Under the pieces are notes generated by a model. The model made no database searches and was not told where the DNA came from. It saw nothing but the letters and a program-made list of their open reading frames with translations. This document shows positions 511 through 36,660 of a stretch of 36,660 nucleotides of DNA, piece by piece. Origin of the DNA: a virus; the UHGV virus genome UHGV-0183637, one strand, 5' to 3'. Within the stretch, counting starts at the first letter, position 1, and each line of letters begins with the position of its first letter. Both the position numbers and the translations under genes were made by a program.

Positions 511-1116
511 TTACAGTTTGGCGGCAAGAAGATCTTCCAGTTTGCGTTGATCGACAGCGAACAGGCGGATGCCTTCAGACAGTTTTTCTACCGCCATCGC
601 ATCCTGATTGTGTTCCCAACGAAATTCCGCTTCGCTCATAGGGGTAGGGCGCGGGAAATGCTGAGAAGGCGGGATTAATTTACGTACCACCGGCGAGACT
701 TTTTCCTGCAACTCTTTCAGCAAGTTCGGCGCGATGGTCAGACGGTCACAACCGGTTAAAGCGAGGATTTGCTCGGTACGGCGGAAACTTGCGCCCATCA
801 CGATGGTTTCGTAACGGTGCTGTTTATAGTAGTCGTAGATATTGCGTACTGATTTGACGCCCGGATCTTCTTCTACCACATATGGGTCCATTGGTTTGCG
901 CGCCTGATACCAGTCATAAATACGGCCCACAAACGGTGAAATCAGAAAAACGCCTGCTTCTGCGCAGGCTCGTGCCTGAGCAAAGGAAAACAGCAGCGTC
1001 AGATTGCAATTAATACCTTCTTTTTCCAGCTCTTCTGCCGCGCGAATTCCTTCCCATGTCGAAGCCAACTTGATCAGAATGCGTGACTTCTCAACGCCCT
1101 GCTGCTGGTACAAATC
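511..1116 (-). pseudogene. talA: Transaldolase, 5'-truncated by prophage insertion (C-terminal ~200 codons intact)
   Basis: Track ORF 511..1236 matches transaldolase from [43 protein letters not shown] to the C-terminal AAKL. The first ~40 residues of the ORF ([21 protein letters not shown]...) are not transaldolase-like and are read through the prophage end. Confidence 0.8.
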
Positions 1117-1125
1117 TGTGGGGTA

Positions 1126-1147
1126 GTGATCAATTCTGGGCGGAGTT
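1126..1147 (+). repeat. Putative transposase end-binding site, copy 1 (core TTCTGGGCGG)
   Basis: GTGATCAATTCTGGGCGGAGTT; core repeated at 1208 and 1259 in direct orientation, within 160 bp of the inferred prophage end. Confidence 0.45.
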
Positions 1148-1201
1148 CGTGCAGCCTGGTAGAACCTGCAAGCCTTGTGTGGCGCGGGGTGTGGTGATTT
1201 A

Positions 1202-1222
1202 GTGTGATTCTGGGCGGATTTG
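1202..1222 (+). repeat. Putative transposase end-binding site, copy 2
   Basis: GTGTGATTCTGGGCGGATTTG; core TTCTGGGCGG at 1208..1217. Confidence 0.45.
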
Positions 1223-1254
1223 TGAGAAATGACCAAAAACGCTTTTTTTTGCGC

Positions 1255-1274
1255 TTTTTTCTGGGCGCTTTTGA
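1255..1274 (+). repeat. Putative transposase end-binding site, copy 3 (degenerate)
   Basis: TTTTTTCTGGGCGCTTTTGA; core TTCTGGGCGC at 1259..1268. Confidence 0.35.
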
Positions 1275-2516: not shown

Positions 2517-4559
2517 GTGTGGTTTGTAGTGCGGGATTGCCTGGGATTATCCGGTTTTCCATCAGCAGAAAAAAACATCCGGGCACGTCTGGATCGTCTT
2601 GCTGAAAATAACCCGGAATGGAAGCGCAAGCGTGAAGGCACCAAAGCATTCGAGTATCGCATCGACTGCCTGCCCGCTGAAGCGCAGAAAGTTTTACGTA
2701 AGCGCCTGACCCATCAGGTCCTGGAAGATGCACAACTGCCCGCCGTAGTTGAGCAGAAAGCAGTTAAAAACGTCGCCGTTCGCGATGAACTGGAGGTGAT
2801 GGTCAAATGCCCGGAGCTGGCATTACGCGAAGTCCAGTCACTGACCGACAAGCAAAAGGCCATCGCTGATGCGCGGATATTGCTGGCTACTGAAGTGCAT
2901 AAGCTGCGCGAGTATGCCGGAATGACCAGGAAGGCCGCTTTAAAGCACATCGTTGATGGTGTGCGCATGGGGGCGTTACCTGACCGCATTATCGAAGCAG
3001 CGAATACTGCAAATGCACGTCAGGGAAAGCGAACCGGTGTCAGCACCGGCAGCCTGGATAGCTGGTACTCCAGCTGGGTGATGGCGCGCGGTGATGCCAA
3101 TCAGTTACTGGCGTTACTGGCTCCCGGTCATCATAAGGGAACACCGTGGGAGCAGGTCTGGTGGTTGAGCGATTTCTTTATGTTCTATCGCTCATGGAAG
3201 CGCCCGACCGTTGAATACGCGTATCGCGAGTTTTCAGCCTGGTGGCATGAAAAACACGCGAATGATGCGGGAATGCTGGCGGCACTGCCTTCAGTTCACG
3301 CAGTAAGACGGGTGTTAAGCAGCGTCCCGGTGATTGTTAAAGAGCGTTTCCGCTCCACCGGTTCAGCCTGGCGTTCGCTCAATCCCTTTGTGCGGCGCGA
3401 CTGGACATCGCTACCGGTTAATGCGGTATGGGTCGGAGATGGTCACTGTATGAAAATGACCGCGTTTAACCCCCTGACCGGCAATATTTTCCGGCCAGAA
3501 GTGACGCTGGTTATGGATGCGGGGCAGCGTTTTGTTGTGGGATGGTCACTGTCCCTGTCGGAGAACGTGATAGCTGTTGCTGATGCGTTGCGTTACGGCA
3601 TGGCGCAGCACGGGATACCGCTGATTTATTACTCCGATAACGGGGGCGGTGAAAAAAACCGGGTTCTTGATGCCGATATTACCGGGATTCTCCCCCGGCT
3701 GGGTGTGGAACATCACACGGGGATACCAGGTAACCCGCAGGGGCGCGGGGTGATTGAAAGGCTTAACAAGGAAATTCCCCGGGATGTGGCCCTGAGTTTC
3801 CAGACGTACTGCTCAAAGGGAGCAGACAAGGAAACCGTAATGATGCAGCAACGGATTATGCAGTCAGCCATTAAGGCCACCCACAAAGGGAAAGAACTGA
3901 CAAAACGGCAGGTTAAGGCGAGGGATGAAGTCCCCACCTTTGAGCAACTGATGGCAGCCATAGAACTGGAGGTCAGACGCTATAACAACCGGCCACACAG
4001 CAGCCTTCCCCGCAAAGAGGATGGCGAATATTACAGCCCGGCAGCGTATCGCCGGAAACTGATAAAAGAGCAGAATGTTGAAATTGATTTCCTGTCGCCG
4101 GAAGAACTGCATGAAATGTTCAGACCGGAAGTGACGCGCAAAACATTTCGCGGGGAAATTCAGTTATTCAACAATATTTATTACTCGTATGAGCTGGCCG
4201 CAGAGCACGGGAATGAAGTCAGGGTCAGTTACGATATTCATGATGCAAACAGCGTCATTGTCCGGCGGGCTGATGGCTCTTATATCTGCGATGCCATCTG
4301 GAACGGTAACAAGGTTGATGCCTTCGCTAAACCAGTTATCGAGCAAAAACTGGAGAAACGCGTCAGAGGCCGCATTGCACGGGCCGCGCAGAAAATCGAA
4401 GAGGCTAAACGCGAGCTTACCCCGGCTATTACGCAGAAGCCTGAGTTTAATCTGGGATATGGACTGGAACGCCAGGAGAAAAAGGAAAAAGAAGAACTTT
4501 ATTTATTCGCATCTGAACGCGAGCGCAATTTAAAGAAAAACGGCACAAACAACCGTTAA
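2517..4559 (+). CDS. Mu-type DDE transposase (MuA-like)
   Basis: 680 aa, GTG start after an AAGGTGGA RBS. N-terminus M-WFVVRDCLGLSGFP parallels MuA MELWVSPKECANLPGLP (enhancer/operator-binding domain). Central region WVGDGH...LVMDAGQRFVVGW...YYSDNGG is consistent with a Mu-family DDE core. Confidence 0.9.
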   Translation: MWFVVRDCLGLSGFPSAEKNIRARLDRLAENNPEWKRKREGTKAFEYRIDCLPAEAQKVLRKRLTHQVLEDAQLPAVVEQKAVKNVAVRDELEVMVKCPELALREVQSLTDKQKAIADARILLATEVHKLREYAGMTRKAALKHIVDGVRMGALPDRIIEAANTANARQGKRTGVSTGSLDSWYSSWVMARGDANQLLALLAPGHHKGTPWEQVWWLSDFFMFYRSWKRPTVEYAYREFSAWWHEKHANDAGMLAALPSVHAVRRVLSSVPVIVKERFRSTGSAWRSLNPFVRRDWTSLPVNAVWVGDGHCMKMTAFNPLTGNIFRPEVTLVMDAGQRFVVGWSLSLSENVIAVADALRYGMAQHGIPLIYYSDNGGGEKNRVLDADITGILPRLGVEHHTGIPGNPQGRGVIERLNKEIPRDVALSFQTYCSKGADKETVMMQQRIMQSAIKATHKGKELTKRQVKARDEVPTFEQLMAAIELEVRRYNNRPHSSLPRKEDGEYYSPAAYRRKLIKEQNVEIDFLSPEELHEMFRPEVTRKTFRGEIQLFNNIYYSYELAAEHGNEVRVSYDIHDANSVIVRRADGSYICDAIWNGNKVDAFAKPVIEQKLEKRVRGRIARAAQKIEEAKRELTPAITQKPEFNLGYGLERQEKKEKEELYLFASERERNLKKNGTNNR

Positions 4560-4577: not shown

Positions 4578-5471
4578 ATGAGTTTAATTACGCAATTAAA
4601 TGACGTAATGGCCCGTCGCGGCTATACGCAAACCCACGTCGCCCGTGCTATTGGTCGTAGCAGCGCCGTTATCAACCAGTATTTACAGGGTAAATATCAG
4701 GGCGATATGGCTGATATTGAAGAACGCATTTCTGCCTTTGTGACCCGTGAGCGGGAAAAGGAAAACAGCCGCCGTATTAAAGCGAAATTTGTTGCCACCG
4801 GTATGGCTGCCAAAGGACTGGAGGTGTTGGCCTATGCTCACCTGGAATGTGAAATCTGCGTACTGTATGGCGCGGCAGGTCTTGGCAAAACAATGATTCT
4901 GCGTGAATACGCCGCCAGAAACCGGGATGCGGTCCTGATTGAAGCCGACCCGGGCTATACAGCCAGAACACTGCTTGAGGAGTTGTGCCGCCAGCTGGGG
5001 GTAAAGGTTCGCGGCAACATTCACGAACTGATAGATGCCTGTGTGCGCGAACTGCGTGATTCCGGTCGCCTGCTGATGGTGGACGAGGCTGAACTGCTCC
5101 CCTATCGCGCACTGGAGGTTCTGCGTCGTCTGCATGACAAAGCGGGTATCGGGGTTGTCCTGGCGGGTATGCCTCGTCTTCTGATTAACCTTAAGGGGCG
5201 TCGTGGTGAGTTCGCCCAGTTATACAGCCGTGTGGCGCTGGCGCTTAACCTGGGCGATACGTTGTCGCAGGAAGATTTTAACCAGATAGCTACCGGGTTG
5301 ATGCCGGAAGCAGCAGAACCGGAAATCAGCGAGGCGCTTTACGCACGCTCGCTGGGTAATGCCCGCCGCCTCTTCAAACTGGCGCGCGGTGTGTACCGGA
5401 TTTGTGATATCAGCGATGCACCGGTCAGTGTGCAGGCCATTGATAAATTCGCAGAAATGTTAATTCACTGA
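4578..5471 (+). CDS. Transposition ATPase / target DNA activator (MuB-like AAA+)
   Basis: 297 aa. N-terminal HTH-like segment (GYTQTHVARAIGRSSAVINQY), Walker A GAAGLGKT, Walker B LLMVDEAE. Immediately downstream of the transposase gene. Confidence 0.85.
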   Translation: MSLITQLNDVMARRGYTQTHVARAIGRSSAVINQYLQGKYQGDMADIEERISAFVTREREKENSRRIKAKFVATGMAAKGLEVLAYAHLECEICVLYGAAGLGKTMILREYAARNRDAVLIEADPGYTARTLLEELCRQLGVKVRGNIHELIDACVRELRDSGRLLMVDEAELLPYRALEVLRRLHDKAGIGVVLAGMPRLLINLKGRRGEFAQLYSRVALALNLGDTLSQEDFNQIATGLMPEAAEPEISEALYARSLGNARRLFKLARGVYRICDISDAPVSVQAIDKFAEMLIH

Positions 5472-6152: not shown

Positions 6153-6797
6153 ATGACGACTGAAAATAAAGTTAAGCAATATACAAAAAATAAAGTGCAG
6201 GAAGGCTACTGGGTTGATGCCCGTGGTGTGATGACGCCTGAAAGTCTTATCAAAGATATTGACCGCGACCGTGAGCAGTTGGTCGGTGAGCTTGTGGAGA
6301 TGGTGATTGCTGCCTCCGCCTCACTGCGTGAACTGAAACTGCGTGCGTTTGGTGATATTCAGGCATTTATTGACCTGTCAGCGGAGAAATACGGCGCTGT
6401 GAAAGGCGGTAAAAAAGGGAATATCACGCTTTACAGCTTTGACGGGCGTTACAAGATTCAGCGCGCCATGCAGGACCGTATTGCGCTTGATGAACGCATT
6501 CAGACCGCGAAGGCACTGATTGATGACTGCCTGGCTGACTGGACGGAAGGTGCACGCCCAGAAATCAAAGCCATCATCAGTGAGGCATTCAGCACGGACA
6601 AGGAAGGCAACATTAACACCGGGCGCGTTCTGGCTCTGCGTCGCCTCGAAATTGAGGACGAACGCTGGAATAACGCCATGACGCTGATTGGTGAAGCCGT
6701 CCAGGTAATTGGCAGCAGAAGTTATATCCGCGTGTATGAGCGCGTCGGTGATTCTGCTGAATACCGCGCAATCCCGCTTGATATTGCAGGGGTCTAA
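6153..6797 (+). CDS. Conserved Mu-like early-region protein (possibly DUF3164-like)
   Basis: 214 aa, balanced composition, same strand and position as Mu semi-essential early genes. Family assignment is from memory only and is tentative. Confidence 0.65.
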   Translation: MTTENKVKQYTKNKVQEGYWVDARGVMTPESLIKDIDRDREQLVGELVEMVIAASASLRELKLRAFGDIQAFIDLSAEKYGAVKGGKKGNITLYSFDGRYKIQRAMQDRIALDERIQTAKALIDDCLADWTEGARPEIKAIISEAFSTDKEGNINTGRVLALRRLEIEDERWNNAMTLIGEAVQVIGSRSYIRVYERVGDSAEYRAIPLDIAGV

Positions 6798-8726: not shown

Positions 8727-9437
8727 ATGAAAGATAAATACATTGCCAAAATCAAAAAACTGTTACGCCTTGCCAGAGGAACATCAAGCCCGGAAGAAGC
8801 CGCTAACGCTATTGCAAAAGCCCAGGCCTACATGCGCCAGCATGGCATCAGCGAAAACGACGCGGAATTGTTCGACATTCAGGAAGCTGCCAGCGCGGGT
8901 GCGCCGAGTGATGCCAGTACGCCGCCGCGTTATATGCACATCCTGTGTGACCTGGTCTGTAAAGCCTTCGGTGTCGAGTGTTACATCTCCGGCGAATACC
9001 GGGCTTCTGGTTCACTCAAACGTTACGTGCGTTTTTATGGTCCTGACAGCCGCCCGGAGATTGCGGCCTACGCGTTTGATGTGCTTTCCCGTCAGATGAT
9101 GGCTGAACGTAAAAAATATCAGGATAAACACTGCAAACGTTGTGGTCCGTCCACGCGGGTAGCCCGTGGCGACCAGTTCTGCGAAGGCTGGGTCTTTGGT
9201 GCCCGTGATGTCATTGCGGTGTATGACGTCTCCCCGGAAGAAAAAAGCCGCCTTGAGCTTTACAGAAAGAACCTGCACAGCACTAAGGGGTTGCGCGACG
9301 GGGATATGCGCACAGCTAAAGCGTGCCGGGGTGCAGAGTTTGCCGCTACAGCCGGTTTTATCGCCGGGAAAAACGCCAGGCTGCATCAGGGGGTTAATGG
9401 TCAGAGCAACAGACCGCTGGCACTGGGGAGGGTGTAA
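8727..9437 (+). CDS. DUF2786-like phage protein
   Basis: 236 aa; N-terminus KIKKLLRLARGTSSPEEAANAIAKAQAYMRQHGI resembles the conserved N-terminal helix of DUF2786-family phage proteins (from memory). Confidence 0.65.
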   Translation: MKDKYIAKIKKLLRLARGTSSPEEAANAIAKAQAYMRQHGISENDAELFDIQEAASAGAPSDASTPPRYMHILCDLVCKAFGVECYISGEYRASGSLKRYVRFYGPDSRPEIAAYAFDVLSRQMMAERKKYQDKHCKRCGPSTRVARGDQFCEGWVFGARDVIAVYDVSPEEKSRLELYRKNLHSTKGLRDGDMRTAKACRGAEFAATAGFIAGKNARLHQGVNGQSNRPLALGRV

Positions 9438-36058: not shown

Positions 36059-36071
36059 GTTCAGAGGTTTT

Positions 36072-36660
36072 ATGTCTGTATTGATCTCAGGGGCGCTTAT
36101 TAATGGCGCTGGCGTTCCGATGGCGGAATGCAAAATTTATTTAGATGCACTGGTTAATACCAGTGAAGTGGTTATTGAATCATTTGCGGTTATTGAAACC
36201 GATGCGGCGGGACAGTATGCCTTTGAGGCGCAAAAAGGCAAATACACCGTACACATCAAGCAAAAGAACGGCCCCAAGTGCTGTGTGGGTGACATTTCGA
36301 TTTACGACGATTCAAAGCCCGGCACACTGAATGATTTTCTGACCGCCCCCGATGAAGGCGACCTCAAACCCGACGTGGTGAAACGCTTCGAGGAAATGGT
36401 GGCGCAGGCGCAGCAGAGCGCGGAAGCGGCAGCGGAAAGCGAGCGGCTGGCAGAACAGCACGTTACTGATGCGCAGAAGATTAAGGATGACTGTCAGACG
36501 CTGGCGAATAACGTACAGCAGAATGCAGAGGCCGTTGCCGAAGACAAAAAGCAGGTGGCGTTACTGGCATCATCAGCTTCGCAGGATGCGGCCCGCGCAG
36601 AGCAGGCCGTTAAGGACGCAGACAAAATCGTCGATAAGGCTGTTGATAAACTCGGTGAAG
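36072..36660 (+). CDS. Side tail fibre protein, N-terminal part (lambda Stf-like; continues beyond window end)
   Basis: ATG 36072, open to the window end; MSVLISGALINGAGVPMAECKIYLDALVNTSEVV...IYDDSKPGTLNDFL parallels the lambda Stf N-terminus, followed by an Ala/Gln/Glu-rich repetitive region. Absent from the ORF track because no stop lies in the window. Confidence 0.8.
   Translation, partial: MSVLISGALINGAGVPMAECKIYLDALVNTSEVVIESFAVIETDAAGQYAFEAQKGKYTVHIKQKNGPKCCVGDISIYDDSKPGTLNDFLTAPDEGDLKPDVVKRFEEMVAQAQQSAEAAAESERLAEQHVTDAQKIKDDCQTLANNVQQNAEAVAEDKKQVALLASSASQDAARAEQAVKDADKIVDKAVDKLGE

Follow-up and report, generated by a model that had tools for sequence, protein, structure and literature searches.

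Candidate transposase-binding repeats at the left end of a Mu-like Escherichia coli prophage

Introduction

Multiple transposase-binding sites at the ends of Mu-like elements have been textbook knowledge since 1984. The Mu transposase, MuA, recognizes a 22-bp consensus sequence, NGTTTCAYTNNAARYRCGAAAR, and its end-binding domain Iβ comprises residues 77-174 in the established domain map. Tn7 and CAST elements carry several ~22-bp sites per end, in an asymmetric arrangement. The MuA sites of Mu, L1 to L3 in attL and R1 to R3 in attR, were described by Craigie, Mizuuchi and Mizuuchi (1984) and are reviewed in PMC3145075. Six-site ends have also been predicted for the Mu-like prophages FluMu, Pnm1, and Sp18 (Morgan et al, 2002, cited in PMC2628397). 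As described in the citing paper, that prediction is of the same type as the one made here, leading from repeats at both ends to transposase sites, six per genome. On insertion, Mu duplicates 5 bp of target DNA and B3-type phages duplicate 6 bp (PMC8705779).

Here we analyze the left end of a prophage contained in UHGV virus genome UHGV-0183637. The whole stretch, which we call the window, is 36,660 nucleotides long. An earlier note on this DNA had pointed to three direct repeats at a prophage end as candidate transposase-binding sites. Our analysis indicates that positions 1117-1268 very probably constitute the attL of an E. coli Mu-like prophage that interrupts a transaldolase gene, with the three TTCTGGGCG repeats as its left-end transposase-binding sites. 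This reading draws on the positions and orientation of the repeat core, its symmetry with the right end, its conservation, its joint variation with the transposase, and protein homology. Such ends are a classical type of feature, seen here in a less-studied phage family, and we did not find their sequences in the literature searched.

The left terminus and its host flank

The exact repressor protein encoded at 1429-2055 (− strand) was looked up in public assemblies, which yielded ten loci with the same phage beside unrelated E. coli genes. The ten loci are identical from TGTGGGGTAGTGATCAATTCTGGGCGG onwards and divergent immediately upstream. At least nine independent insertions with unrelated host flanks were found, in each of which the prophage starts with TGTGGGGTAGTGATC, and insertions of the prophage family were found in more than 15 unrelated loci. 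Because the insertions are identical from this point and all differ upstream of it, the left terminus is placed at position 1117 and not at 1126. Positions 1-1116 of the window are therefore host DNA.

511-1116, − strand: host flank, holding the 3′ portion of a talA-like transaldolase gene that the prophage interrupts (a transketolase gene comes next), with transaldolase matches to window positions 1000-1083
1117-1118, + strand: left terminus of the transposable prophage, 5′-TG; loci L009-L018 and L019-L023 are mutually divergent directly upstream of TGTGGGG

An identical transaldolase junction occurs in two public assemblies (L011 and L016), where the host side is annotated as PF00923 TAL_FSA followed by transketolase. 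The open reading frame at 511-1236 is a truncated host transaldolase gene that continues into phage DNA. Of 5426 complete E. coli genomes, 60 (~1%) carry this left end, among them that of EPEC E2348/69.

Three repeats in one orientation

Counting both strands, the 36,660 bp contain four exact copies of the 9-mer TTCTGGGCG, compared with 0.30 expected from dinucleotide-preserving shuffles, and three of the four fall within a stretch of 135 bp. As the earlier note had observed, these three have the same orientation: TTCTGGGCG(G/C) is found at 1134-1143, 1208-1217, and 1259-1268, always on the + strand, reading TTCTGGGCGG at 1134 and 1208 and TTCTGGGCGC at 1259. Counted from the left terminus, the first core begins at element nt 18 and the other two at nt 92 and 143, and the last one ends at element nt 152, which agrees with the earlier placement of the repeats within 160 bp of the inferred end. 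The flanks, previously described as conserved, are shared in part, with 'GGA' following two of the three cores and 'TTTG' likewise following two. The flanks read GTGATCAA-core-GGAGTTCG for L1, GTGTGA-core-GGATTTGTG for L2, and GCGCTTTT-core-GCTTTTGATC for L3.

1122-1143, + strand: L1, terminal candidate transposase-binding site (element nt 6-27; core TTCTGGGC at 1134-1141)
1144-1195, + strand: L1-L2 spacer, containing CAAGCCTTG at 1169-1177
1196-1217, + strand: L2, candidate site (element nt 80-101; core 1208-1215)
1247-1268, + strand: L3, candidate site (element nt 131-152; core 1259-1266), overlapping a weak terminator-like hairpin

The 22-nt frames in this list are borrowed from Mu, and the data define only an 8-9-nt core. 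An alignment of eight E. coli left ends shows 17 of the 18 TTCTGG columns to be invariant, compared with 62 of 94 columns elsewhere in nt 1-160. Whole 22-nt frames were also considered as units of conservation and rejected: 41 of their 66 columns are invariant compared with 62 of the 94 spacer columns, and TTCTGG alone is more conserved than the spacers. The frames thus show no special conservation, which leaves the core as the one part that the data define. The register of L1 is the same in the Klebsiella phage Kp4852-3, and the start of the L1 core at nt 18 mirrors the position of the right-end core of relatives described below.

Two further matches lie far inside the element. The fourth TTCTGGGCG copy is at 6555-6563 (− strand) in a DUF3164 gene, and a site-like sequence, GTTAGCGGCTTCTTCCGGGCTTGATG, is at 8757-8782 (− strand) in a DUF2786 gene. 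Both are probably due to chance, because shuffled sequence reaches similar matrix scores. The L1-L2 spacer contains a small palindrome, CAAGCCTTG (1169-1177), and the GCCTTG within it is invariant in nine of nine aligned left ends, including that of the Klebsiella phage (alignment columns 56-61). Mu carries GCTTGCAAGCCTGT in its own L1-L2 spacer, where this prophage has CAAGCCTTG. The spacer sequence is possibly a bend, host-factor, or packaging element.

The right end in relatives

The window ends at 36,660 within a tail-fibre gene (36063-36660), ~1.7-3.2 kb before the right end, and contains no inverted core copies belonging to a right end. The right end was therefore taken from relatives of two kinds: contigs with an identical tail-fibre assembly protein, and finished E. 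coli genomes, which supplied six complete prophages. The closest full-length proxy, GCA_029102925.1 (L017 and L002), is 37.5 kb long and has an identical repressor and left end. Beyond the point corresponding to 36,660, relatives continue with a variable-length tail fibre and a DUF4376 gene before the right end is reached. Several public contigs break at the same tail-fibre point, which suggests a repeat common to other prophages.

Seven complete relatives, whose left ends are identical or nearly identical to that of the window, have the right terminus ...GAAGTTACA (...GTTACA-3′). Among complete relatives, the one in NZ_CP124372 has its right end near position 3326000 of that record. The right ends of all relatives finish in ...GCCCAGAAAAAAACGCGAAGTTACA-3′, which reads inwards as TGTAACTTCGCGTTTTTTTCTGGGCTAATTGACGCGCAATTCTGGGCGGAG...AAAAAGCCCAGAATTGA. 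In this inward direction the inverted core appears at nt 18 and again at nt 40, so that R2 follows R1 by 22 bp, and a third copy in the opposite orientation occupies nt 68-75. Inverted copies at the right end, which the earlier note had named as the check on its proposal, were thus found at the same 18-nt distance in the seven complete relatives, outside the window. The element accordingly has termini of the form 5′-TG...CA-3′ (left in the window, right from the seven relatives), with a motif repeated in inverted orientation at both ends and its terminal copies equidistant from them.

Other sources of right-end information were explored. In a scan of metagenomes, the right junction of the window's own insertion (...GTTACA followed by AATC) gave no matches, and a general right-end scan returned seven other junctions, none of them in the transaldolase gene. 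The Klebsiella phage ST405-OXA48phi1.1 (MK388859) was discarded as a source of ends, its record being trimmed at gene boundaries and lacking them. A weight matrix built from right ends only ranked L3 first and L1 third in the window and placed L2 outside the top eight; shuffled sequence scores similarly, and the matrix was set aside as too weak to serve as independent proof.

A 4-bp target-site duplication

The target duplication is 4 bp in all seven complete prophages: AGAT, CTGA, AAAG, ATTG, GAGA, GATG, and GGAG (junctions at L019-L023, L031, and L017/L002). The ATTG duplication was checked against an empty fliH site (L030), where GTGTGATTGCTTCG becomes ...GATTG-phage-ATTGCTT. Insertion in this family is nearly random, with a short duplication of 4 bp, and the rule from the seven prophages and the one empty site predicts the left copy in the window.

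1113-1116: predicted left copy of the 4-bp duplication, AATC

We found no report of a 4-bp duplication for a Mu-like phage in the literature searched.

Comparison with Mu and other elements

For a direct comparison, the Mu genome (NC_000929) was scanned with the 22-bp MuA consensus. The scan recovers Mu's own L1, L3, R1, R2, and R3 with 0-4 mismatches; for L2, the 3′ half AAACGCGAAAG alone is visible. The site frames of Mu and of the E. coli prophage family compare as follows, in nt from the terminus, with the prophage core at frame positions 13-20.

L1: Mu 6-27; E. coli prophage family 6-27
L2: Mu 111-132; E. coli prophage family 80-101
L3: Mu 151-172; E. coli prophage family 131-152
R1: Mu 6-27; E. 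coli prophage family 6-27
R2: Mu 28-49; E. coli prophage family 28-49
R3, inverted in both: Mu 56-77; E. coli prophage family 66-87

The likeness to Mu L1-L3 that had been proposed earlier is borne out qualitatively. Both left ends have a terminal site, a gap, and two sites closer together, with frames starting at 6, 80, and 131 in the prophage and at 6, 111, and 151 in Mu. L2 and L3 of the prophage are 31 and 20 bp nearer the terminus than in Mu. The right ends agree almost exactly in the frames of R1 and R2 and in the inversion of R3, which lies 10 bp further in than in Mu. Like Mu, the prophage has TG...CA termini, three sites per end, and a terminal site in an equal frame at both ends, and its genes for A (DDE transposase), B (AAA+ ATPase), Ner, and a repressor follow the Mu order. 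In contrast with Mu, its repressor is of the CI type rather than the Mu c type, and its target duplication is 4 bp instead of 5 bp. The repeats also do not match the MuA consensus, as had been noted before: the best match in 1117-1316 is mismatched at 7 of 17 specified positions, and the two site sequences are unrelated.

Kp4852-3 (OK490409, an unannotated record) offers a second comparison. It starts with TGTGGGG.GGTGATC (TGTGGGGAGGTGATC), and ends in ...CTACA. Its left end carries TT(C/T)TGCA (TTYTGCA) at nt 19, 93, and 144, and its right end has the motif at nt 19 and 41, together with an inverted copy at 72-77. Five of its six repeat positions are as in the E. coli prophage family, the exception being the inverted R3, which is displaced inwards by 3 nt. 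It differs in having the core TT(C/T)TGCA rather than TTCTGGGC and a transposase that is 42% identical. Another Klebsiella phage, Kp4866-3 (L026), has a third motif, (T/A)TTGATAC, three times per end in a similar layout, in an unverified record with uncertain termini, and was taken as no more than a hint; its three right-end copies all seem to have the same orientation. The TnsB transposases of Tn7 and CAST share a related fold, being next to Mu among the fold matches below, but the element type, accessory proteins, and site sequences all differ, and the prophage is not Tn7-like.

The transposase as the presumed reader of the core

The proteins that could act on the left end are encoded just inside it.

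1429-2055, − strand: CI-type repressor (Pfam HTH_3), directed towards the left end
2238-2507, + strand: Ner-like early regulator (Pfam HTH_35)
2517-4559, + strand: MuA-family DDE transposase, 680 aa (Pfam HTH_Tnp_Mu_1, rve, Mu-transpos_C)
2916-3086, + strand: codons for transposase residues 134-190, a candidate end-recognition region comparable with MuA Iβ
4578-5471, + strand: MuB-like AAA+ transposition ATPase (Pfam AAA_22, TniB)

Genes for a MuA-family transposase and a MuB-like ATPase thus lie next to each other. A phmmer search of the transposase against solved structures gave a marginal match to MuA (E 4e-4), so that profile and fold comparison were needed. A profile of 22 transposase sequences aligned to MuA by hhalign with 98.4% probability over MuA residues 3-558, at ~24% identity. 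In a fold comparison, an AlphaFold model of the transposase (mean pLDDT 69) matched the Mu transpososome best (4FCY, E 1e-13), with TnsB structures next. Judged by profile and predicted fold, 2517-4559 encodes a distant homologue of MuA, which belongs to a cluster of about 1900 homologues.

A second E. coli lineage, consisting of UMNF18 and four other genomes (L031 3658-3830 and 40640-40743; L033-L036), carries TTCTGGA(C/T) at the three left sites in five of five members. Its L1-L3 read TTCTGGACT, TTCTGGATC, and (T/A)TCTGGACT. UMNF18, the sole member of this GGA lineage with its right end in hand, has TTCTGGAC at R1-R3, giving TTCTGGA(C/T) at six of six sites. The three bases after TTCTGG switch together between the lineages. 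GGA-type right ends were also found unpaired (L001, L038, L039, and L043), and one metagenomic right end (L037) is a hybrid, with R1 and R2 of the GGG type and R3 of the GGA type; because of this hybrid, the two types may not be strictly incompatible.

Transposases from ten GGG-type and five GGA-type phages were compared, with identities to the window's protein of 86% to 98% in both groups. Only six of the 680 columns separate GGG from GGA: K139T, L142I/V, D181Q, S/G182E, S186A/T, and V188L. The window transposase has K139, L142, D181, S182, S186, and V188, and all six positions fall within residues 139-188, on predicted helices 138-151 and 177-190 of the AlphaFold model. In a local residue mapping of low confidence, residues 134-190 correspond to MuA residues 123-153, and the six diagnostic residues align with 128-153 (K128, F131, R146, D147, Q151, and neighbours), inside domain Iβ. 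Sequences within each group are closely related, and the six-residue association therefore rests on few independent events. Site type and transposase residues change together, which supports the earlier suggestion that this transposase would have a distinct end specificity.

The other candidate DNA-binding proteins do not follow the end type. An identical Ner (WP_000989761.1) occurs with both GGG and GGA ends, as does an identical B protein. Repressors are 80% similar across end types and 54% similar within one type, and at least three repressor types accompany GGG ends. Because Ner, B, and the repressor do not track the end type whereas the six residues do, the comparison points to the transposase, and to its Iβ-like region, as the reader of the core.

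Variation of another kind affects the start of the protein. Residues 1-32 of the transposase (window 2517-2612) are replaced as a block in prophages with another Ner/immunity region (L023 and L031), and identity over the rest of the protein is 88-92%. Such a pattern would be expected of an N-terminal domain that, like those of Mu and D108, binds to an enhancer within the operator region. The repressor-ner intergenic region (2100-2225) contains three copies of CGTACTTT/AAAGTACG, at about 2107, 2133, and 2155 (span 2106-2163), and several TCGATAA/TTATCGA repeats at 2188-2220. These repeats are candidate operators and perhaps a transposition enhancer too. Scans of 900-2600 for Rfam families, promoters, and terminators returned nothing meaningful apart from the weak hairpin at L3.

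Alternative explanations

The repeats could instead be operators for the CI-type repressor or Ner, or sites of another phage DNA-binding protein. They lie near regulatory genes, with the repressor gene ending ~160 bp from L3, and a weak interaction with the Mu ends is known for the Mu repressor. The motif is nonetheless found 18 nt from both termini, inverted and 35-38 kb apart, and this mirrored register argues for end recognition rather than gene control. The lack of correspondence between the end type and either repressor or Ner, described above, also speaks against operators, and the c-ner intergenic region has other repeats of its own, CGTACTTT and TCGATAA. We consider the operator explanation very unlikely. 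The same mirrored register bears on the proposal that the repeats are part of a packaging (pac) signal or are sites for the host factors HU or IHF. Mu has its pac site in the left end and HU acts in its L1-L2 spacer, and the conserved GCCTTG in the spacer of this prophage would suit such a role. However, a pac signal is needed at one end only, and the right end, too, carries three copies of the core, in mirrored register; furthermore, the motif changes in step with transposase residues. The spacer may well contain a pac or host-factor site in addition, but this would not explain the repeats, and as an account of the repeats themselves this proposal is highly improbable.

L3 (1251-1268) taken singly might be read as an intrinsic terminator that keeps transcription from entering or leaving the prophage, the likeness of the three copies being incidental. 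A pattern scan does flag GCGCTTTTTTCTGGGCGC followed by TTTTGATCTG, that is, GCGC-N10-GCGC and a run of T at 1251-1268. Against this, the stem consists of just four G-C pairs plus wobble pairs, the scanned region holds four such sites compared with 1.7 expected, the GGA lineage retains the core but not the stem (ACGCTTTATTCTGGACTAC), and L1 and L2 have no hairpin. L3 therefore does not hold a stable, conserved, G+C-rich terminator, and there is very little chance that termination accounts for it. Finally, the region is T-rich and has short tandem repeats (CGCTTTTTTTTG/CGCTTTTTTCTG), as would be expected if the repeats were a chance, low-complexity similarity in an intergenic region. With three copies within 135 bp where 0.30 are expected per window, mirror copies at the right end, and positions conserved across genera, coincidence is almost inconceivable. 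Recognition of the ends by the transposase is the reading that we develop below.

Model for end recognition and implications

Binding itself, the number of monomers per site, and the assignment of domains to half-sites are modelled here on the Mu system (PMC3145075). Each of L1, L2, and L3 would be occupied by a single monomer of the MuA-family transposase, as in Mu. Six subunits, on L1-L3 and on R1, R2, and the inverted R3, would then pair both ends into a transpososome. The subunits on L1 and R1 would bring their active sites to the terminal TG/CA dinucleotides, which lie 17 nt outward from each core; they would cut at the CA terminus and attach it to target DNA. The core would most likely be read by a helix-turn-helix-like part of the transposase comparable with MuA domain Iβ.

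A broader proposal, which we regard as evenly balanced between right and wrong, is that the family represents a distinct MuA-type branch in which a TTCTGGRC code is read by an Iβ-like helix-turn-helix, the natural GGG and GGA specificity alleles differ at only six transposase residues, and the target is cut with a 4-bp stagger. If this is true, the 4-bp cut, compared with 5 or 6 bp, implies another spacing of the two active sites on target DNA. The 4-bp duplication, if confirmed, would also widen the range known for transposable phages. With exact ends and candidate sites, prophages of this family, found in ~1% of complete E. coli genomes, can be delimited cleanly and mini-elements can be designed. 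The paired GGG and GGA variants, together with the six diagnostic residues, offer a compact system for the co-change of a MuA-type transposase and its end specificity.
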